DNA from: Escherichia coli | Lineage (GTDB): Bacteria > Pseudomonadota > Gammaproteobacteria > Enterobacterales > Enterobacteriaceae | Length of the DNA: 64,000 bases | Assembly: GCF_048403405.1 (NCBI RefSeq) | Contig: NZ_CP183136.1 | Strand: one strand, 5' to 3' | Shown: positions 4,049-59,068 of the stretch, in pieces | How positions within the stretch are numbered: position 1 is the first letter of the stretch | Layout of the letters: every line of letters starts with the position of its first letter | Translations under genes and position numbers: made by a program | The notes under the pieces: generated by a model | Seen by the model: the letters and a program-made list of their open reading frames with translations, nothing else | What the model was told of the DNA's origin: nothing | The model's database searches: none

Positions 4049-4164
4049 AGGGAAATAAATTTTGACTTTGTTCAAATATCAGACTTTTTAATGGTTCAAA
4101 CTGATGACAATAATCGAGAGATAATTAGTATATTAATTACGTGGTTAATGCCACGTTAAAATTT

Positions 4165-4245
4165 GAACTTGAAAATCGCCGATGCAGGGAGCTTGTCCCT
4201 CCCTGCATCGACTGTCCATAGAATCCTTTGTGAGGAGGTTCCTAT
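4165..4245 (-). ncRNA. finP: FinP antisense RNA (approximate bounds)
   Basis: Perfect stem-loop cgatgcagggag-cttgtc-ctccctgcatcg at 4180..4210 in the traJ leader, plus a second hairpin over the traJ RBS and start; bounds inferred. Confidence 0.5.
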
Positions 4246-4938
4246 GTATCCGATGGATCGTATTCAACAAAAACATGCTCGTCAAATCAGATCTGCTGGA
4301 AAATCTGACGGCAGTTATTCAGGATTATCCAAATCCAGCCTGTATCAGGGACGAAACTGGAAAATTTATTTTTTGCAATACGCTGTTTCATGAGTCATTT
4401 CTTACACATAGATCAAAGTGCTGAAAAATGGCTTCTGTCGCAGAGAGATTTTTGTGAATTGATCTCTGTCACAGAGATGGAAGCATACAGGAATGAGCAT
4501 ACGCATCTTAATCTTGTAGAGGATGTTTTTATTCAGAACAGATTCTGGACAATATCTGTCCAGTCATTTCTTAATGGACACAGAAATATTATTACTGGTG
4601 GCAATTTTATGATGCTGCTCATGTTCGTCATAAAGACAGTTATAATCAAAAAACGATTGTCAGTGATGATATCAGAAATATAATCAGAAGAATGAGTGAT
4701 GATTCTTCTGTATCATCATATGTAAATGATGTCTTTTACTTATATAGCACCGGAATCAGTCATAATGCTATAGCAAGAATATTAAATATATCCATCTCCA
4801 CATCAAAGATAACACGCATCTCTGATATGCGACTACTTCTCTGTTTCTAATAAAGATGAGTTAATTATCTTACTCTACAATAAAAAGTTTATTTATTATT
4901 TATACGAGAAGGCTATGTGTATCATAAATACGCGTTAA
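4244..4938 (+). pseudogene. traJ: TraJ transfer activator, multiply frameshifted
   Basis: ORFs 4163..4393, 4182..4424 and 4390..4683 in three frames carry consecutive TraJ-like segments (MYPMDRIQQKHARQI / DLLENLTAVIQDYPNPACIRDETGKF / DQSAEKWLLSQRDFCELISVTEMEAYRNEH). Confidence 0.7.
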
Positions 4939-22660: not shown

Positions 22661-25348
22661 ATGAAGTTTATGTGATTGCCGGTGGTGAATGGTTGCGGAA
22701 TAACCTGAACGCCATTGCCGCCTTTATGGGAACCAGGACGTGGGATTCCATTGAAAAAATTGCTCTCACCCTGTCTGTTGTTGCGGTGGCCTTTATGTGG
22801 GTACAGCGGCACAACGTGATGGATTTGCTGGGCTGGGCGGCGGTGTTTGTGCTTATCAGCCTGCTGGTTAATATCCGTACGTCGGTGCAGATTATTGATA
22901 ACAGTGACCTGGTCAAAGTCCATCGGGTGGATAATGTGCCGGTCGGACTGGCGATGCCACTTTCACTGACGACCCGTATCGGGCATGCAATGGTGGCCAG
23001 TTACGAGATGATCTACACGCAACCGGACAGTTTCACCTACAGCAAAACGGGGATGCTGTTTGGCGCAGAACCTGGTATGCAAAAAGCACCGACTTTTTGT
23101 CCCGCAATCCGGAAATCGCCAATCTTTTTCAGGATTATGTGCAGAACTGTGTGATGGGGGATATTTACCTGAACCACAAATACACGCTGGAGGAGCTGAT
23201 GGCCTCCGCTGATCCCTACACGCTGATTTTTTCCCGCCCCAGTCCGCTGCGGGGCGTTTATGACAGCAATAATAATTTCGTGACCTGTAAGGACGCGTCG
23301 GTTTCGCTGAAAGACAAGCTGAATCTGGACACACAGACGTGGCGGCAAAACCTGGCATTATTATGTGCAGCAGATATTTGGCGGTCAGCCCGGATCCGGA
23401 CCTGTTATTCAGTGCAACTGGTTGAGTGACAGTTACCGTTATTTCTACGGCTCCAGCCAGTCTGCCAGTCAGATCATGCGCCAGAACGTCACCATGAATG
23501 CGCTGAAGGAGGGTATCACCAGTTATGCAGCCCGTAACGGTGACTACCGCCAGCCTGGTGAATCTGGCCACCACGTCATCGATGGAGAAGCAACGTCTGG
23601 CACATGTCTCCATTGGTCATGTGGCTGATGCGAAACACTGCCGATGGCGCAGACCATTCTGGTGGGCATTACCATCGGTATTTTCCCGCTCCTGGTACTG
23701 GCGGCTGTCTTCAACAAACTGACGCTGTCTGTTCTGAGAGGCTATGTGTTTGCCCTGATGTGGTTGCAGTCATGGCCAATGTTGTATGCCATTCTGAACA
23801 GCGCCATGACATTTTATGCGAAGCAGAATGGTGCACCGGTGGTGCTCTCGGAAATTTCACAGATACAGCTGAAATACTCCGATCTGGCTTCCACTGCCGG
23901 GTATCTTTCCATGATGATACCCGCCATTATCCTGGATGATGGTCAGAGGCCTTGGCGCCGGTTTTTCCAGCGTGTACAGCCATTTCGCTTCCTCTGCTAT
24001 CAGCCCGACTGCCAGTGCGGCAGGCAGTGTGGTTGACGGTAATTACTCCTACGGCAACATGCAGACGGAAAACGTGAACGGCTTCAGCTGGAGCACCAAC
24101 AGCACCACGTCGTTTGGTCAGATGATGTACCAGACCGGCAGTGGCGCAACTGCCACACAGACCCGTGACGGTAATATGGTGATGGATGCAAGCGGAGCGA
24201 TGTCCCGTTTACCGGTTGGTATCAATGCAACGCGTCAGATTGCAGCGGCACAACAGGAAATGGCCCGGGAGGCGTCGAACAGAGCAGAAAGCGCCCTGCA
24301 TGGTTTCAGCAGCAGTATTGCCAGTGCCTGGAACACGCTCAGTCAGTTTGGTTCTAACCGGGGGAGCAGTGATTCTGTCACCGGTGGCGCTGACAGCACC
24401 ATGAGTGCACAGGACTCCATGATGGCCAGCCGTATGCGCAGTGCAGTGGAAAGCTATGCGAAGGCGCATAATATCAGTAATGAGCAGGCGACTCAGGAAC
24501 TGGCATCAACAGGTTCTAGGTTCTCGTCTGGCGGAATGTATGCAGATGCTCATGCTGAATGGGGGATTAAACCTGAAATTCTTGGTGTTGGTGGTGGGGT
24601 TGGTGTCAGAGGCGGGTTTAAGGGAAGTCTTGGATGCGAACGGATGATGACTCACATTCTGCAAGTAGTGGCAGCAGAGCTACCCATGATGCTCGCCATG
24701 ATATTGACGCTAAAGCCAGTACAGGACTTTAAAGAAGCCAGCGATTACTTTACCAGTCGCAAGGTCAGTGAGTCCGGCAGCCATACTGACAATAATGCTG
24801 ACTCCCGGGTGGACCAGTTGTCTGCAGCCCTGAACTCAGCGAAACAGAGTTACGACCAATACACGACGAATATGACCCGCAGCCATGAATATGCGGAAAT
24901 GGCCTCCCGTACTGAAAGCATGAGCGGGCAGATGAGTGAAGACCTGTCGCAACAGTTTGCACAGTATGTGATGAAACGCGCACCGCAGGATGCAGAAGCT
25001 ATTCTGACAAATACCAGTTCGCCGGAGATTGCAGAACGTCGTCGGGCGATGGCATGGTCTTTTGTGCAGGAACAGGTACAGCCTGGTGTTGATAATGCCT
25101 GGCGGGAATCCCGTGGCGATATTGGTAAAGGAATGGAGAGCGTACCTTCGGGTGGTGGCAGTCAGGATATTATTGCTGACCATCAGGGACATCAGGCCAT
25201 TATTGAGCAAAGAACGCAGAACAGTAATATCCGTAATGATGTAAAACATCAGGTTGATAATATGGTCACAGAATATCGTGGCAATATCGGAGATACTCAG
25301 AACAGTATCCGTGGCGAGGAAAATATTGTAAGACGGGCAGTATTCTGA
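22657..25348 (+). pseudogene. traG: TraG, mating-pair stabilisation / entry exclusion, multiply frameshifted
   Basis: Starts at GTG (VNEVYVIAGGEWLRNNLNAIAAF); successive segments in ORFs 22495..23154, 23097..23429, 23365..23628, 23644..24036 and 23936..25348 in different frames. Confidence 0.7.
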
Positions 25349-29367: not shown

Positions 29368-32300
29368 TGTTGAGTTTCAGCGTTGGTTAAATCGGCAGGC
29401 AGTGCCGGAAACTATTACACCGACAAGGATAATTACTATGTGCTGGGCAGCATGGGAGAACGCTGGGCTGGTCAGGGGGGCTGAACAGCTTGGGACTGCA
29501 GGGCAGCGTCGATAAGGATGTTTTTACCCGTCTTCTGGAGGGCAGGCTGCCGGACGGAGCGGATTTAAGCCGCATGCAGGATGGCAGTAATAAGCATCGT
29601 CCCGGCTACGACCTGACCTTCTCCGCCCCCAAAAGTGTCTCCATGATGGCCATGCTCGGGGGCGATAAACGCCTGATTGATGCACATAACCAGGCCGTGG
29701 ATTTTGCTGTCCGTCAGGTGGAGGCGCTGGCTTCCACACGGGTGATGACGGACGGACAGTCAGAAACGGTGCTGACCGGTAATCTGGTGATGGCACTGTT
29801 TAACCATGACACCAGTCGCGATCAGGACCCACAGTTACACACGCATGTAGTGGTGGCTAATGTCACGCAGCATAACGGCGAGTGGAAGACACTGAGCAGT
29901 GACAAAGTGGGGAAAACCGGATTTATCCGAGAACGTGCTACGCGAACCGGATTGCGTTCGGGAAGATCTATCAGAGTGAGTTACTGTCAGCGCAGGTTGA
30001 GGCGCTGGGTTATGAAACCGAAGTGGTCGGTAAGCACGGTATGTGGGAGATGCCGGGCGTACCGGTGGAGGCCTTTTCCAGTCGTTCACAGGCTATCAGG
30101 GAGGCCGTCGGTGAAGACGCCTCGCTGAAATCCCGGGATGTGGCGGCACTGGATACGCGAAAATCCAAACAGCACGTCGATCCGGAAATCAGAATGGCTG
30201 AATGGATGCAGACGCTGAAGGAAACCGGGTTCGACATCCGGGCATATCGTGACGCGGCGGATCAGCGTGCGGAGACCCGCACGCAGGCGCCCGGGGCTGT
30301 TTCACAGGAGGGGCCGGATGTGCAGCAGGCGGTGACACAGGCCATTGCCGGATTAAGTGAACGAAAAGTGCAGTTTACGTACACGGACGTGCTGGCCAGA
30401 ACGGTCGGTATACTGCCGCCGGAAAATGGTGTGATTGAACGGGCACGCGCCGGTATCGATGAGGCCATCAGTCGTGAGCAGCTTATCCCCCTCGACCGTG
30501 AGAAGGGGCTGTTCACATCAGGAATTCATGTGCTCGATGAGCTGTCCGTCCGGGCACTCAGTCGTGACATCATGAAACAGAACCGGGTGACCGTACATCC
30601 GGAGAAAAGTGTCCCCCGGACGGCTGGTTACAGCGATGCGGTCAGTGTTCTGGCACAGGACCGTCCGTCGCTGGCCATTGTGTCCGGGCAGGGCGGTGCA
30701 GCCGGGCAGCGTGAGCGGGTGGCTGAACTGGTCATGATGGCCCGGGAGCAGGGGCGGGAGGTGCAGATTATCGCTGCTGACCGTCGCTCGCAGATGAACC
30801 TGAAGCAGGATGAACGGCTGTCCGGTGAGCTGATAACCGGACGTCGTCAGCTGCAGGAGGGCATGGTCTTCACGCCGGGCAGTACTGTTATCGTCGACCA
30901 GGGCGAAAAACTCTCCCTGAAAGAGACGTTAACCCTGCTGGACGGTGCCGCACGTCATAACGTACAGGTCCTGATAACCGACAGCGGGCAGCGAACCGGT
31001 ACAGGCAGTGCGCTGATGGCCATGAAGGATGCCGGGGTGAACACGTATCGCTGGCAGGGCGGAGAACAGCGACCGGCAACCATCATCAGTGAACCGGACC
31101 GGAATGTCCGCTATGACCGGCTGGCCGGAGATTTTGCGGCCAGCGTGAAAGCCGGAGAAGAGAGCGTGGCACAGGTCAGCGGGGTACGGGAACAGGCCAT
31201 ACTGACACAGGCCATTCGCAGTGAGCTGAAAACACAGGGCGTGCTCGGACACCCGGAGGTGACCATGACCGCCCTGTCACCGGTCTGGCTGGACAGCCGG
31301 AGCCGTTATCTGCGGGATATGTACCGACCGGGGATGGTGATGGAGCAGTGGAACCCGGAGACACGCAGTCATGACCGCTATGTTATCGACCGGGTGACGG
31401 CGCAGAGTCACAGCCTGACCCTGCGGGATGCGCAGGGCGAAACGCAGGTGGTGCGTATTTCCTCCCTGGACAGCAGCTGGTCGCTGTTCCGGCCGGAAAA
31501 AATGCCGGTGGCAGACGGCGAGCGACTGAGGGTGACAGGGAAAATTCCCGGACTCCGCGTCTCCGGCGGTGACCGCCTGCAGGTGGCATCCGTCAGTGAA
31601 GATGCGATGACGGTTGTTGTGCCGGGGCGGGCTGAACCGGCCACCCTGCCTGTGGCTGATTCACCGTTCACGGCACTGAAGCTGGAGAACGGCTGGGTGG
31701 AAACGCCCGGGCATTCCGTCAGTGACAGTGCGACGGTGTTTGCCTCCGTCACACAGATGGCAATGGACAACGCCACCCTGAACGGTCTGGCCCGCAGCGG
31801 TCGTGATGTCCGGCTGTATTCCTCACTGGATGAAACCCGTACTGCGGAAAAACTTGCCCGCCATCCCTCCTTTACGGTGGTTTCTGAGCAGATAAAGGCG
31901 CGGGCCGGTGAGACATCGCTGGAAACCGCTATCAGTCTGCAGAAAACCGGGCTGCACACGCCGGCACAGCAGGCCATTCATCTGGCCCTTCCTGTGCTGG
32001 AAAGTAAAAACCTGGCCTTCAGCATGGTGGACCTGCTGACAGAGGCGAAGTCGTTTGCTGCAGAAGGAACCGGTTTTACTGAACTGGGAGGGGAAATCAA
32101 TGCGCAGATAAAACGCGGTGACTTACTGTATGTGGATGTGGCAAAAGGCTATGGCACAGGCCTGCTGGTTTCTCGTGCGTCGTATGAGGCAGAAAAAAGT
32201 ATTCTTCGCCATATTCTCGAAGGTAAGGAGGCGGTCACGCCGCTGATGGAGAGAGTACCCGGCGAACTCATGGAGACGTTAACGTCGGGACAGCGTGCCG

Positions 32301-34664: not shown

Positions 34665-35411
34665 ATGACAACGGATAACACGAACACGACACGTAACGAT
34701 TCACTGGCTGCACGGACCGATACCTGGTTGCAGTCGTTTCTGGTCTGGTCACCCGGACAGCGGGATATCATCAAAACGGTGGCGCTGGTGCTGATGGTAC
34801 TGGACCACATCAATCTGATATTCCAGCTGAAGCAGGAATGGATGTTTCTGGCCGGGCGAGGAGCCTTTCCGCTGTTTGCCCTGGTGTGGGGGCTGAATCT
34901 GTCCCGTCATGCGCATATCCGGCAACCGGCCATTAACCGGCTGTGGGGATGGGGAATTATTGCCCAGTTCGCATATTATCTGGCCGGCTTTCCCTGGCAT
35001 GAGGGGAATATCCTGTTTGCCTTTGCAGTGGCGGCACAGGTGCTGACGTGGTGTGAAACGCGCAGTGGGTGGCGTACAGCAGCGGCCATTCTTCTGATGG
35101 CCCTGTGGGGGCCTTTGTCCGGCACCAGTTACGGCATTGCCGGGCTGCTGATGCTGGCGGTCAGTTACCGACTGTACCGGGCGGAAGACAGAGCGGAACG
35201 TCTGGCGCTGCTTGCATGCCTGCTGGCCGTTATTCCGGCACTTAACCTTGCCTCCAGTGATGCAGCGGCGGTGGCCGGTCTTGTAATGACGGTGCTGACC
35301 GTTGGTCTGGTGTCGTGTGCAGGAAAATCATTACCCCGTTTCTGGCCCGGGGATTTTTTCCCGGTATTCTACGCCTGTCATCTGGCTGTGCTGGGCGTTC
35401 TGGCGTTGTGA
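34665..35411 (+). CDS. traX: TraX, pilin N-acetylase
   Basis: 248-aa polytopic membrane protein after traI. Confidence 0.85.
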   Translation: MTTDNTNTTRNDSLAARTDTWLQSFLVWSPGQRDIIKTVALVLMVLDHINLIFQLKQEWMFLAGRGAFPLFALVWGLNLSRHAHIRQPAINRLWGWGIIAQFAYYLAGFPWHEGNILFAFAVAAQVLTWCETRSGWRTAAAILLMALWGPLSGTSYGIAGLLMLAVSYRLYRAEDRAERLALLACLLAVIPALNLASSDAAAVAGLVMTVLTVGLVSCAGKSLPRFWPGDFFPVFYACHLAVLGVLAL

Positions 35412-35469: not shown

Positions 35470-36330
35470 ATGAAAATTACGGATCACAAACTCTCTGAAG
35501 GTATTGCCCTGACATTTCGTGTTCCTGAAGGAAATATAAAACATCCTTTGATTATCTTATGCCATGGGTTTTGCGGTATCAGGAATGTTCTGCTCCCTTG
35601 CTTTGCGAATGCCTTCACAGAAGCAGGATTCGCAACGATTACTTTTGATTATCGAGGATTCGGTGAGAGTGATGGAGAACGAGGGCGTCTGGTTCCTGCA
35701 ATGCAGACCGAAGATATTATTTCAGTTATCAATTGGGCAGAAAAGCAGGAATGTATTGATAATCAGCGTATTGGGTTATGGGGAACATCGCTGGGAGGGG
35801 GGCATGTCTTCAGTGCAGCTGCGCAGGACCAACGCGTAAAATGTATTGTCAGCCAGCTGGCTTTTGCTGACGGTGATGTTCTGGTTACCGGAGAGATGAA
35901 TGAATCGGAGAGAGCGTCTTTTCTGTCCACGCTGAATAAAATGGCAGAGAAGAAGAAAAACACCGGGAAAGAGATGTTTGTGGGGGTTACCCGGGTACTG
36001 AGTGATAATGAATCAAAGGTATTCTTCGAGAAGGTAAAAGGTCAGTATCCTGAAATGGATATAAAAATACCTTTCCTTACGGTTATGGAGACGTTGCAAT
36101 ATAAACCGGCAGAGAGCGCAGCCAAAGTACAGTGCCCAGTTTTGATTGTTATTGCCGGCCAGGATAGTGTTAATCCACCAGAACAGGGAAAAGCCTTATA
36201 TGATGCTGTTGCTTCTGGTACTAAGGAATTATACGAGGAAGCTGACGCATGCCATTATGATATTTATGAAGGCGCGTTTTTTGAACGTGTGGCGGCAGTA
36301 CAGACGCAATGGTTTAAAAAACATCTTTAA
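35470..36330 (+). CDS. Alpha/beta-fold hydrolase
   Basis: HGFCG oxyanion-hole-like motif and GTSLGG nucleophile elbow. Confidence 0.7.
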   Translation: MKITDHKLSEGIALTFRVPEGNIKHPLIILCHGFCGIRNVLLPCFANAFTEAGFATITFDYRGFGESDGERGRLVPAMQTEDIISVINWAEKQECIDNQRIGLWGTSLGGGHVFSAAAQDQRVKCIVSQLAFADGDVLVTGEMNESERASFLSTLNKMAEKKKNTGKEMFVGVTRVLSDNESKVFFEKVKGQYPEMDIKIPFLTVMETLQYKPAESAAKVQCPVLIVIAGQDSVNPPEQGKALYDAVASGTKELYEEADACHYDIYEGAFFERVAAVQTQWFKKHL

Positions 36331-36432
36331 TTGTCGGTATTAATATGTCAGAGGTCGTTGAGGTCAGCTTAATATCATAGTGAGTAGTTTCAACGACCTG
36401 GAGGACATATTTTCACAAAGGTCAGGGCAATC

Positions 36433-36993
36433 ATGACAGAGCAGAAACGACCGGTACTGACACTGAAACGGAAAACGGAAGGGGAAACACCGACCCGGAG
36501 CCGGAAAACCATCATCAATGTCACCACGCCACCAAAATGGAAGGTGAAAAAGCAGAAACTGGCGGAGAAGGCTGCCCGGGAAGCAGAGCTGACAGCAAAA
36601 AAAGCGCAGGCCAGACAGGCGCTGTCCATTTATCTGAACCTGCCCTCGCTGGATGAGGCCGTGAACACCCTGAAACCCTGGTGGCCGGGATTATTTGACG
36701 GTGACACACCCCGACTTCTGGCCTGCGGTATCCGGGACGTGTTACTGGAAGACGTGGCGCAGCGGAATATCCCGCTCTCGCATAAAAAACTGCGCAGGGC
36801 GCTGAAGGCCATCACCCGTTCAGAAAGCTATCTGTGTGCCATGAAAGCCGGTGCCTGCCGGTATGACACGGAAGGGTATGTGACGGAGCATATTTCTCAG
36901 GAGGAAGAAGTGTATGCGGCAGAGCGTCTGGATAAAATCCGCCGCCAGAACCGGATAAAGGCAGAACTTCAGGCCGTGCTTGATGAACAATAA
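36433..36993 (+). CDS. finO: FinO fertility-inhibition RNA chaperone, apparently intact
   Basis: 186 aa, basic N-terminus; matches FinO from recall. Confidence 0.85.
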
Positions 36994-36994
36994 A

Positions 36995-37025
36995 AAAGCC
37001 TCCTTCACACTAAAGGAGGCGGAAA
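36995..37025 (+). terminator. Rho-independent terminator after finO
   Basis: Hairpin gcctcctt...aaggaggc. Confidence 0.6.
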
Positions 37026-37577
37026 AATAAGGCTTCTCTGAAACCTTCTTCCATACCCGGCAGAAGAAGGTTATAAAAATTTATAACACATTCACCGGCC
37101 TGGATTAAAGGGGGAAGGAAAATGAACGGAACAGGGCGTGATTCGCAAAACTCCGGGGTATGGCGCTACCGGCAGGTCGGACGCCGGGCTGTCCGGCTGG
37201 AAGTCAGGGGGACTGGCCGGGAGCCGCTGAGGCATGGCTACGGGCTGCGCAGTCTGCTCCCCGGACAGACTGGCAGCAGTTTGCCCGAAAAAGGGCTGAA
37301 CACTGCCACCGGCGCTGCCGGGGAAGGGTGTAACGAAAAAGCAGCCTTCATTACTCCAGGGATTCAGAAGGCTGAATAATGCATGAGATTTGCTTTTTTT
37401 AATATCCGGTCGGAAAGTATGACCGGACAGTTCTGAGTAGCACAGAGTTTTTTCCATATTAAGTCGTGATTTTATATTTTGTGATTAATTTCACAAAATA
37501 AGGTGTTATTCAGTGTGTGCTGCGATATTCAGGATTACCTGAAATACAGGTGCCATTTATCTGATATGGAGAATAAC

Positions 37578-38039
37578 ATGAGGAAATATATTCCACTGGT
37601 ATTATTTATCTTTTCATGGCCGGTATTGTGTGCAGATATTCATGGACGGGTTGTTCGTGTACTGGACGGTGATACCATCGAGGTCATGGACTCACGGAAG
37701 GCAGTGCGGATCAGGCTGATAAATATTGATGCACCGGAAAAGAAACAGGATTATGGCCGGTGGTCAACGGACATGATGAAATCACTGGTTGCAGGAAAAA
37801 CGGTTACCGTCACATATTTTCAGCGAGATCGTTATGGTCGTATTCTCGGGCAGGTTTATGCACCAGACGGAATGAATGTTAATCAGTTTATGGTCCGGGC
37901 CGGGGCTGCCTGGGTATATGAGCAGTACAACACAGATCCCGTGCTGCCTGTCCTTCAGAACGAAGCCAGACAACAAAAACGTGGGCTCTGGTCAGATGCT
38001 GATCCGGTTCCCCCCTGGATATGGAGACACCGTAAATAA
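37578..38039 (+). CDS. Secreted thermonuclease (micrococcal-nuclease family)
   Basis: Signal peptide MRKYIPLVLFIFSWPVLCA and SNase-like motifs (VLDGDTIEV, RLINIDAPE). Confidence 0.75.
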   Translation: MRKYIPLVLFIFSWPVLCADIHGRVVRVLDGDTIEVMDSRKAVRIRLINIDAPEKKQDYGRWSTDMMKSLVAGKTVTVTYFQRDRYGRILGQVYAPDGMNVNQFMVRAGAAWVYEQYNTDPVLPVLQNEARQQKRGLWSDADPVPPWIWRHRK

Positions 38040-38084
38040 AGCGATGGCAATCTTATCATTCATCTGTTCTCAGCGGGAATAAAA

Positions 38085-38294
38085 ATGGCGAAAACAAAAC
38101 AGGAATGGCTGTATCAGTTACGGCGATGTTCATCAGTCAATACGCTGGAAAAAATTATTCATAAAAACAGAGACAGTTTATTAAACAGTGAACGTGAATC
38201 ATTTAATTCAGCAGCAGACCACCGGTTAGCGGAATTAATCACCGGAAAGTTATATGACAGGATACCAAAAGAGATATGGAAATATGTAAGGTAA
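38085..38294 (+). CDS. Hypothetical protein (69 aa)
   Basis: ORF only. Confidence 0.3.
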   Translation: MAKTKQEWLYQLRRCSSVNTLEKIIHKNRDSLLNSERESFNSAADHRLAELITGKLYDRIPKEIWKYVR

Positions 38295-38331
38295 TAATTC
38301 AGAATAATTAATTACCAGGAGCAGATAAACA

Positions 38332-38922
38332 ATGAAGCTGATTATTTTTATTCTCATTGTTCTGATTATTGCAGCGTTACTTATCCGGATTATCCTCAAA
38401 AGTGTAAATCAGCATTCTCCTTTGCTGATGCAGTTGCATGCGGCAGGTATACGGACCGGTGATGCAGAGCGAATACTGTCCGGCGGTGAATACTGGCAAC
38501 GTCAGAAGACGCTGCTGACAGAAAGGGAAGTCAGTTTTATGAAAGGACTGTTCAGAATTGTGGATATGAAGCGGTGGTATCTGTGTCCGCAGGTACGGGT
38601 CGCGGATATCGTCCAGCTGAACGGGAATATCCGGCCACGATCACGCCAGTGGTGGCAGTTATTCAGGATGGTGTCTCAGTGGCATGTTGATGTGGTTATC
38701 GTTGAGCGGCGTTCGTTCAGTATTGTTGCAGCAGTAGAGCTGGATGATGCCAGCCATTTACGACCGGAACGCAGACGCCGGGATATTCTTCTGGAAGAGG
38801 TTCTGAGGCAGGCTGGTATTCCGTTGCTCAGAAGCCACGATGCCAGAAAACTGCTGCAGATGACCGGAGAATGGCTGAATACAACAGGAACTGATCAGCA
38901 ATCACCGGAACATCGTAGCTGA
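38332..38922 (+). CDS. DUF2726-like protein with N-terminal transmembrane helix
   Basis: 196-aa ORF with hydrophobic N-terminus; family assignment from recall. Confidence 0.55.
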   Translation: MKLIIFILIVLIIAALLIRIILKSVNQHSPLLMQLHAAGIRTGDAERILSGGEYWQRQKTLLTEREVSFMKGLFRIVDMKRWYLCPQVRVADIVQLNGNIRPRSRQWWQLFRMVSQWHVDVVIVERRSFSIVAAVELDDASHLRPERRRRDILLEEVLRQAGIPLLRSHDARKLLQMTGEWLNTTGTDQQSPEHRS

Positions 38923-39161
38923 CGCCTTCGCGTTGCTCAGTTGTCCAACCCCGGAAACGGGAAAAAGCAAGTTTTCCCCGCTCCCGGCGTTTCCATAACT
39001 GAAAACCATACTATTTCACAGTTTAAATCACATTAAACGACAGTAATCCCCGTTGATTTGTGCGCCAACACAGATCTTCGTCACAATTCTCAAGTCGCTG
39101 ATTTCAAAAAACTGTAGTATCCTCTGCGAAACGATCCCTGTTTGAGTATTGAGGAGGCGAG

Positions 39162-39419
39162 ATGTCGCAGACAGAAAATGCAGTGACTTCCTCATCTGGC
39201 GCAAAACGAGCATACAGAAAGGGTAAACCTTTGAGTGAAGCAGAACGACAGAGAGCAGCTTCTGCGCGCAAACGATCTGTATGTAAAGAGATCAAGGTTT
39301 TCGTCAGACCAGAACTGAAAAACTACCTTACCAGTCTGTGTGCAGAGGAAGGGGTAACTCAGGCAGAGTTGATAGAAAGGCTTATCGAGAAAGAGGCCTG
39401 TCACAGGAACATGATGTGA
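39162..39419 (+). CDS. copB: CopB (RepA2) replication repressor
   Basis: 85-aa ORF MSQTENAVTSSSGAKRAYRKGKPLSEAERQRA..., IncFII CopB from recall. Confidence 0.85.
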   Translation: MSQTENAVTSSSGAKRAYRKGKPLSEAERQRAASARKRSVCKEIKVFVRPELKNYLTSLCAEEGVTQAELIERLIEKEACHRNMM

Positions 39420-39469: not shown

Positions 39470-39570
39470 TTTAAGGAATTTTGTGGCTGGCCACGCCGTA
39501 AGGTGGCAGGGAACTGGTTCTGATGTGGATTTACAGGAGCCAGAAAAGTGAAAACCCCGATAATCTTCAG
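39470..39570 (-). ncRNA. copA: CopA antisense RNA (approximate)
   Basis: Position between copB and tap/repA1 in a RepFII replicon; bounds not resolved. Confidence 0.4.
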
Positions 39571-39654
39571 CAAGTTTGGCGACTAAGAAGAAGATTAACG
39601 GGGCTAACAAGAAACCGCATAGAAGCTGTTGCTCTATGCGGGGAGTATAGTTAT

Positions 39655-41645: not shown

Positions 41646-41909
41646 ATGAATAGCACCACACATTACGAAAACGCCAATTTCCTGCGCGAGCTGGCCGAAA
41701 GCCTGCCTCGTATTTTTCCAGAAGGCAGTACAGACAAGTCTGCACTATTGCAACGCCTCGCTAATGAAGAACTGGCACGGGCGGAATACGACGAACAGAT
41801 CCGAGCGAAAGTTGCCGCTGCCCGCGCCGATAAGCGGCCGGGAATGAGTTCCGCGCAACTGCGCCAGCAACTACAGGGACGTTATCAGGAACTGCGCAAT
41901 GAGTTATGA
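41646..41909 (+). CDS. yacA: Antitoxin (YacA-like)
   Basis: 87-aa ORF overlapping the toxin start. Confidence 0.65.
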   Translation: MNSTTHYENANFLRELAESLPRIFPEGSTDKSALLQRLANEELARAEYDEQIRAKVAAARADKRPGMSSAQLRQQLQGRYQELRNEL

Positions 41910-42198
41910 AATAGAATGGCGACCAGGTGCGATTGAGGATATAACGGCGTTGTTTGAATATCTGGTCGAGAATGCATCTCTTTGGGATGCAAGGAACGTG
42001 ACAGAGCGTCTGATCACTGCAACCGATCGCCTGGCTGATTACCCCAGGCTGTATGAAACGGATGAACGCTATGGTGAAGGGGTTCGCCGTATTAGCTTAC
42101 TTGGACAGCATGTACTTTATGAAGTGAATGATGAGGCCAGTCGTGTCAATATCCTGGCGGTTGTAGGCCAGCGTCAGAATCCCCGATTCATTCTTTGA
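41899..42198 (+). CDS. yacB: RelE/ParE-family toxin (YacB-like)
   Basis: 99-aa ORF overlapping the antitoxin stop; RelE/ParE-like size and C-terminus. Confidence 0.7.
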   Translation: MSYEIEWRPGAIEDITALFEYLVENASLWDARNVTERLITATDRLADYPRLYETDERYGEGVRRISLLGQHVLYEVNDEASRVNILAVVGQRQNPRFIL

Positions 42199-58603: not shown

Positions 58604-58837
58604 TGTTCTTTAAAAATCAGGATTTATTTCAGGCTCCGGCAATACGCATTTATGTGTTCTGTCAGTCATCCGGCTGGCAGGTAATGAAAACGCAGGAACA
58701 GAAGGAGGAAAACACCGGAAAGCGTCAGATGCAGATATGAAAAAAAGCAGGTCAGGGACCTGCTTAATCCACGCCGTAAGAATTGTGCGACCAATTTTGA
58801 CGGCATTGTTAACCAATTTGTCATAAGGAATCCATTT

Positions 58838-59068
58838 ATGACTGTAAGCATTGTTTCACCTTCCGCAGCGGCTGTAAAGCCCCGCCGTCATCCCCGTTTC
58901 AGACGCGAAGACATCCCCGCGCCGGAACTTGACCCCGTGCTGAAAGCCTTCGGGCGACACATTGCCCGGAGTTTTCGCCGGGGGCGTGGTGTACACATCC
59001 CCGCCATGAAAAACACGGCCTTCGGGCAGGTGCTCCGCACACTCGAACTGAAACGCGCTTTTAACTGA
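58838..59068 (+). CDS. Hypothetical basic protein (76 aa)
   Basis: ORF downstream of Frpo copy B. Confidence 0.4.
   Translation: MTVSIVSPSAAAVKPRRHPRFRREDIPAPELDPVLKAFGRHIARSFRRGRGVHIPAMKNTAFGQVLRTLELKRAFN

Follow-up and report, generated by a model that had tools for sequence, protein, structure and literature searches.

We analysed the interval 35470-38922 of a 64,000-nucleotide stretch of Escherichia coli DNA (NCBI RefSeq assembly GCF_048403405.1, contig NZ_CP183136.1; hereafter the window), in which a group of genes for a hydrolase, FinO, a nuclease, an Hha-type protein and a protein with a DUF2726 domain lies between traX and the IncFII replicon of a plasmid. Taken together, our results indicate that the interval is very probably a segment of R100-type backbone, running from traX to the replicon and made of three adjacent units on the + strand rather than of one system. 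The first unit would be the tail of the tra operon, with traX, a uilS-like hydrolase gene and finO; the second a small open reading frame (ORF) of the ANR family, with the antisense RNA AS-pc02 lying across its 3' end; and the third a tight cluster of the nuclease, hha/rmoA and DUF2726 genes. The segment as such is already known and annotated as ordinary R100-type IncFII backbone; the present analysis adds the assignment of the hydrolase to UilS, the hha/rmoA gene, the ANR ORF and its frameshift, AS-pc02, the predicted topology and fold of the DUF2726 protein, and the exchange of an SNase-type for a PLD-family nuclease in related plasmids. Gene identities were taken from domain searches, from the annotation of near-identical records and from Rfam.

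A backbone segment shared with R100

Over 3.9 kb the window is about 99.5% identical to R100 (NC_002134) at the DNA level and carries its genes in the same order, every called gene from 34.6 to 39.5 kb of the window being on the + strand. The hydrolase, FinO and the Hha-family protein are 100% identical to those of R100, while the nuclease and the DUF2726 protein carry one and two substitutions, respectively. In the R100 region we take the hydrolase gene to be the one named 'orf286' and the Hha-family gene to be rmoA. Two differences set the window apart from R100: a run of five instead of six G residues in the ANR ORF, which shifts its reading frame, and a different allele of repA2/copB immediately to the right of the block. 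The relatedness breaks sharply within 38995-39419, from about 99.5% up to about 39.0 kb to only 54 of 85 identical residues in RepA2/CopB, and this break points to a recombination joint between the DUF2726 gene and repA2.

The segment is widely distributed. In PLSDB, at least 5,000 plasmids match the 3.9-kb stretch and at least 1,379 of these cover 80% of it or more; the matches listed are mostly from Escherichia, Klebsiella, Shigella and Salmonella, and mostly on plasmids predicted to be conjugative. Among complete E. coli genomes, 3,679 of 5,426 have a match, nearly always on a plasmid. The same genes without the hydrolase were described in 2009 on the enterotoxin plasmid pEntH10407 (PMC2762410). 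Across F-like plasmids the slot is a mosaic in which finO is constant, the hydrolase gene comes and goes, and the nuclease-hha-DUF2726 trio is swapped in other plasmids for Hok/Gef, PIN or NYN genes. Against copies from 94% down to 56% identical, the ratio of nonsynonymous to synonymous substitution rates (dN/dS, Nei-Gojobori) ranges from 0.10 to 0.25 for the five intact genes (hydrolase 0.14, finO 0.13, nuclease 0.14-0.17, hha 0.10, DUF2726 0.11-0.25) and from 0.25 to 0.47 for the ANR ORF. The intact genes are under purifying selection.

The initial annotation had presented the block as cargo, and the question arises as to whether it is a mobile cassette gained by this plasmid. The GC content drops from about 0.60 in traI and traX to 0.43-0.47 in the hydrolase gene and in the genes from the nuclease to DUF2726, and both the mosaic character of the slot and the juxtaposition of an R100-like block with a repA2 allele unlike that of R100 would fit such a gain. 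Yet a search for direct or inverted repeats or insertion sequence (IS) ends flanking the block found none, which argues for backbone rather than a cassette; moreover, neither order nor position changes in R100 or across more than 1,000 plasmids, and the core regulator finO sits in the middle of the block. On this balance we regard the gain of a cassette as very unlikely, and the term cargo does not suit the block. Even less probable, and strongly disfavoured, is the idea that the uncharacterised genes are functionless passengers in decay: the frameshift of the ANR ORF in the window and its dN/dS, the highest of the set, go in that direction, but the low ratios of the hydrolase, nuclease, hha and DUF2726 genes hold out to 56% amino acid identity, catalytic residues are invariant and intact copies number in the thousands.

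In other respects the initial annotation was a sound starting point. The hydrolase, nuclease and DUF2726 genes that it described are real, its outer coordinates and its placing of the genes between traX and the replicon are correct, all three lying on the + strand to the left of repA2/copB, the domain searches that it proposed as a check recovered the three named families (Abhydrolase_1, PF00565 and PF10881), and none of the three genes is part of the mating machinery. Two other genes inside the block, finO and the Hha-family gene, do act on transfer. The inventory of the initial annotation was also incomplete, the Hha-family gene, the ANR ORF and AS-pc02 having been overlooked within the same coordinates, and its description of the gene roles as poorly defined is overtaken, at the level of annotation, by the RefSeq name uilS that the hydrolase gene now bears, after a family of quorum-quenching lactonases.

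The hydrolase and FinO at the end of the tra operon

The left flank of the block is traX (34665-35411, + strand), the final gene of the mating apparatus, which encodes the pilin acetylase (PF05857 TraX, E 6e-71); its start was set by the 248-residue annotation in relatives, and its product is one residue off that of R100. The hydrolase gene follows (35470-36330, + strand) and encodes a protein of 286 residues (Abhydrolase_1, E 2e-35) without a signal peptide. This protein scores 508.9 bits against the NCBIfam equivalog model of UilS (NF047920, cut-off 400), covering positions 1-285 of 285, and the identical protein is named uilS in current RefSeq records. Its S107 (within GTSLGG), D232 and H262, as well as its HGF motif, are invariant among 16 homologues of 64-88% identity.

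In Serratia marcescens, UilS is a lactonase of N-acyl homoserine lactones (AHLs): C10-AHL is no longer degraded once the gene is deleted, the ability returns upon complementation, and expression of UilS in E. coli TOP10 removes C10-AHL (PMC11633161). The likeness of the plasmid protein to Serratia UilS rests on the score of the family model, and the two share their length (286 residues against 285 model positions) and the alpha/beta-hydrolase fold with a Ser-Asp-His triad. Their settings differ, the Serratia gene being chromosomal, adjacent to luxR and induced by urea through CpxR, whereas the plasmid copy lies 3' of traX and no luxR stands beside it. Judging from its family membership, the plasmid hydrolase is most likely a cytoplasmic Ser-Asp-His enzyme that would open the lactone ring of AHLs produced by neighbouring species. 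Orthologues 63-70% identical to it are encoded on chromosomes of Erwinia, Pantoea, Citrobacter, Enterobacter and others. On one Pantoea agglomerans contig (L015, 3721-4861) the orthologue, 64% identical, lies 74 nucleotides 3' of an Hha-family gene whose product is 52% identical to the plasmid Hha; the association of hha with the hydrolase gene therefore exists outside IncF plasmids too. A PHROGs scan returned generic esterase and nuclease families only, and a literature search for 'orf286' together with finO found no paper.

Between the hydrolase and nuclease genes lies finO (36433-36993, + strand), which encodes 186 residues with complete FinO_N (PF12602, E 7e-38) and ProQ/FinO (PF04352, E 1e-26) domains and matches the model NF010317 with 361 bits over positions 1-186 of 186. 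The initial annotation was right in calling finO intact, its product being that of R100, and mistaken in setting it at the flank of the block, since it lies inside. As for its partners, Rfam detects in the window both the FinP RNA (4250..4172, 99.7 bits) and the 5' untranslated region of traJ (traJ_5, 4139-4249, 124.4 bits), so that a full-length match to the FinO of F-like plasmids is accompanied by both partners on one plasmid. As established for this family, FinO is an RNA chaperone that shields FinP and helps it to pair with the traJ leader, by which transfer is repressed; the F plasmid itself has its own finO interrupted by IS3, unlike the intact copy in the window. With all three components intact here, repressed transfer, which had been forecast from finO, is a fair prediction from the sequence.

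The nuclease cluster, the small ORF and its antisense RNA

The SNase-type (thermonuclease) gene (37578-38039, + strand; PF00565, E 1.6e-30) encodes 153 residues. Its start was placed at ATG 37578, which is preceded by a GGAG Shine-Dalgarno sequence, opens the signal peptide MRKYIPLVLFIFSWPVLCA and agrees with the annotation of relatives; on these three grounds the GTG at 37503, proposed by the mechanical list of ORFs, was set aside. The signal-like N-terminus combines an n-region MRK with a hydrophobic core (residues 5-18) and reads LCA just before the D of DIHG, so that export is predicted, as the signal peptide noticed at the outset had suggested. Alignment with the nuclease of Staphylococcus aureus (E 2e-14) pairs D21, R35, D40, E43, Y85 and R87 with D32, R46, D51, E54, Y86 and R88 of the plasmid protein. 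All Ca2+-binding and catalytic residues of S. aureus nuclease A, its SNase domain and an export signal are hence found in the plasmid protein, which differs in being short (134 residues when mature) and in having no extra domains. We predict a periplasmic Ca2+-dependent nuclease, one that would cut nucleic acid in the periplasm without sequence specificity. SNase homologues are borne by other plasmids as well, ParB of RP4 being an example. By tblastn the nuclease family is present in at least 5,000 plasmids; among the matches listed, about 2,370 reach 90% identity, more than 2,200 stay under 60%, and 87% of the records are predicted to be conjugative. The lower-identity records that were examined comprise one IncK2/Z plasmid and one IncF plasmid with 84% identity.

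The next gene (38085-38294, + strand; 69 residues) belongs to the Hha/YmoA family (PF05321, E 4e-23, 81.8 bits against a cut-off of 25; NF008191, 95.7 bits against 90), and its product is the same as R100 WP_001298565. An effect of rmoA on conjugation was reportedly found by Nieto et al. in 1998; together with the H-NS of the host, the Hha-type protein may tune the silencing of plasmid genes, those for transfer included. The gaps on either side of hha, 45 nucleotides to the nuclease gene and 37 to the DUF2726 gene, contain no terminator-like site, and the three genes are probably expressed as one transcript from the AT-rich region 37440-37577. Within this region, 5' of the nuclease gene, a perfect CRP-type core of the form TGTGA-N6-TCACA (TGTGATTAATTTCACA, 37480-37495) is the sole match in the window; promoter-like hexamers are found near it on both strands, and one of its half-sites is kept in a divergent F-like plasmid.

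The DUF2726 gene (38332-38922, + strand), called 'yihA' in one record, encodes 196 residues and matches PF10881 with 77.1 bits against a cut-off of 24.7. The N-terminal transmembrane helix that had been proposed for its product is borne out by a hydrophobic helix at residues 3-21 (mean Kyte-Doolittle 3.45) and by a structure model (mean predicted local distance difference test, pLDDT, 81.8) in which a helix at residues 2-27 is followed by an alpha/beta domain. This domain has a putative PD-(D/E)XK nuclease fold of the Vsr/DUF559 kind; a sequence search against the PDB returned no relative. E66, D92, H118, D120, E136, D138 and H142 are invariant among 20 sequences down to 54% identity, the motif being H118-x-D120 and E136-L-D138-D-A-S-H142. 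In 18 of 19 full-length DUF2726 proteins, the short flank N-terminal to the helix contains 0-1 Lys or Arg and the 15 residues after it contain 3-6, the exception being the window protein with 1 and 1 (or 1 and 3 when R19, inside the hydrophobic window, is counted). By the positive-inside rule this bias predicts that the domain lies on the cytoplasmic side of the inner membrane, to which it would be tethered as a Vsr-like nuclease.

The middle unit lies between finO and the nuclease gene. In relatives, a 70-residue ORF (37122-37333, + strand) passes the ANR-family model NF033650 with 40.1 bits against a cut-off of 32. In the window this ORF is broken because one base is deleted from a run of G residues, six in most relatives and in 3 of 3 that were aligned, five here (37207-37211, + strand). 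The 85-residue ORF that results (37122-37379) has no match to NF033650, and a 57-residue alternative (37160-37333), which keeps the C-terminal part of the ANR protein, reaches 28.5 bits, under the cut-off. With a 91-nucleotide query, 26 of the roughly 1,090 plasmid records that matched carry the exact five-G sequence and about 1,060 lie at 95-99% identity, the band where a six-G tract would place a record. The shorter tract could be genuine but rare, could be a tract that switches in length, or could reflect a sequencing error in a homopolymer, and the ANR copy of the window is probably inactive or altered at its N-terminus. A minus-strand ORF of 121 residues at 37092-37457 was rejected as a gene, being a by-product of the five-G tract that is absent from six-G relatives and has no Pfam match. 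ANR proteins are known to bind AraC-type activators and H-NS (PMC4983702, PMC5570504), and binding to H-NS is a property that members of the ANR and Hha/YmoA families share. The intact ORF of relatives passes the model of the Aar/ANR family, whereas the window copy is frameshifted and has no AraC-type partner gene alongside, no gene for an AraC/XylS-type activator being seen between positions 33 and 42 kb of the window. Other ANR-like ORFs lie 3' of finO on an F-type E. coli plasmid (L012, 1545-1748, 29 bits) and on a Salmonella F-like plasmid (L004, 404-646, 23.5 bits), both under the same cut-off.

The antisense RNA AS-pc02 (37413..37230, minus strand), of an Rfam family described from the plasmid pHK01 (RF02876), scores 229.5 bits against a gathering score of 40 over its full length (1-185 of 185). 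Its sequence runs opposite the 3' third of the ANR ORF and the region downstream, and its predicted fold has a free energy of -64.3 kcal/mol (z -2.5). We considered the ORF and AS-pc02 as a type I toxin pair and rejected it, the peptide being arginine-rich and not hydrophobic. Elsewhere AS-pc02 scores 215.7 bits at one locus (L011) and a weaker 53.5 bits on plasmid L012, where the AS-pc02-like element stands about 420 nucleotides further 3' of the ANR-like ORF and is not antisense to it. Directly 3' of the finO stop lies a pair of terminator-like hairpins (36998-37047) with T-runs on the minus strand, one at 37020..36998 (10 pairs, then TTTTTT) and the other at 37047..37029. Situated 180-210 nucleotides past the annotated 3' end of AS-pc02, they look like putative terminators of leftward antisense transcription from the AS-pc02 side. 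Three other antisense RNAs of the pHK01 set in Rfam, AS-traI (32224-32300), AS-traG (23379-23467) and AS-pc01 (58742-58843), exceed the gathering score on the minus strand of the window.

To the right, repA2/copB (39162-39419, + strand; PF10723, E 9e-34) marks the start of the IncFII replicon, in which the CopA RNA (39637..39546) was recognised by Rfam and repA1 lies further on. Past the replicon and a set of toxin-antitoxin-like ORFs at 41646-42198, the GC content falls to 0.30-0.37 between 43500 and 45000, which is probably an acquired insert.

Alternative readings and meaning

The assignment of the hydrolase to the AHL lactonases has to be weighed against the possibility that the protein is a general esterase without any role in quorum quenching, its gene acting mainly in cis by raising finO mRNA. 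In 1992 van Biesen and Frost reportedly observed that orf286 of R6-5, upstream of finO, raised finO mRNA and strengthened repression; the hydrolase gene is present on some plasmids and missing from others, and finO is always directly downstream. Several of the points that weigh against our own reading favour the esterase as well: among solved structures the protein comes closest to generic or polyester hydrolases and to E. coli YcjY (7qjm, E 4e-33; 5xb6), the three chromosomal contexts of orthologues that were checked (Erwinia, Pantoea and Citrobacter) have no clear LuxR/LuxI synteny, the only regulator found nearby being a GerE-only protein in Pantoea, and a literature search found no paper tying the IncF hydrolase gene to AHLs. 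Also against our own reading, E. coli is not known to make any AHL; spacing is the one ground for co-transcription of the nuclease cluster, and the positive-inside rule the one ground for the topology of the DUF2726 protein; and the CRP core, a candidate site to be taken as a lead only, is a single match where 0.08 are expected per window and 8 of 100 shuffles contain at least one. Set against the esterase are a score more than 100 bits above the cut-off of the equivalog model of UilS, an invariant triad with a dN/dS of 0.14, which argues that the protein itself and not just its DNA is selected, and the removal of C10-AHL by UilS in E. coli (PMC11633161). We hold the esterase acting in cis to be a serious possibility, short of the lactonase that we prefer.

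Another way to read the nuclease cluster starts from its relatives. The DUF2726 gene occupies the same slot between finO and repA2 on F-like plasmids of Salmonella (75% identical) and Enterobacter (56%), and in the Enterobacter loci and one of three Salmonella loci the SNase beside it is replaced by a PLD-family nuclease with a signal peptide (L006, 5729-6274; L007, 7027-7581; L008, 7049-7570). The Enterobacter copy that was tested matches Nuc of the IncN plasmid pKM101 (1BYR) with an E of 1.4e-57. Nuc is likewise a small signal-peptide nuclease of a conjugative plasmid, with close homologues in the finO-repA2 slot, but its PLD/HKD fold against the OB-fold of the SNase makes it a functional analogue of the nuclease in the window, not a relative. 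That the replacement comes from a non-homologous enzyme hints at selection for the presence of some nuclease in the periplasm, and this is the main argument for a further reading. The initial annotation had mentioned the breakdown of incoming DNA or of extracellular DNA in biofilms as possible roles, and it is tempting to imagine that the exported nuclease and the membrane-tethered DUF2726 protein form a two-compartment barrier to incoming DNA under the regulation of Hha, a plasmid-encoded exclusion or defence function directed at rival plasmids, phage genomes or transforming DNA, which would explain why a periplasmic nuclease plus DUF2726 is kept in the slot despite the change of fold. Both proteins keep their nuclease catalytic residues and are predicted to stand where DNA crosses the envelope, the pairing of DUF2726 with a signal-peptide nuclease, of the SNase or the pKM101-Nuc type, recurs in the slot of three divergent F-like lineages, and the SNase domain matches one PADLOC candidate model (PDLC01096, 54.8 bits). 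Conversely, a PADLOC-DB 2.0 scan of the six proteins reported no defence system, and nothing at all for DUF2726, the hydrolase, Hha, ANR and FinO, and the genes are separable: plasmid L012 has the nuclease without Hha or DUF2726, other F-like plasmids have DUF2726 without the SNase, and the nuclease family occurs in many plasmid types without DUF2726. We also know of no exclusion phenotype reported for the periplasmic nucleases of pKM101 and of IncI plasmids, and on the whole we judge such a barrier improbable.

We are thus brought back to a backbone segment of three units. If the R100-type hydrolase were an active AHL lactonase, a resistance-plasmid backbone that is among the commonest would be a quorum-quenching element, and this appears to us likelier than a barrier made of two nucleases. 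The genes concerned, for a predicted quorum-quenching lactonase, a predicted exported nuclease, a putative membrane-tethered Vsr-like nuclease and an ANR-like regulator with its antisense RNA, are among the commonest on clinical IncF resistance plasmids. Should the lactonase be active, IncFII plasmids would alter the sensing of AHLs by their hosts and by neighbouring bacteria; AHL sensing mediated by SdiA has been reported to repress the conjugation of another plasmid (reviewed in PMC7690428). And if the nucleases do act on incoming DNA, their presence would bear on competition between plasmids and on the barriers to transformation and phages in clinical Enterobacteriaceae.

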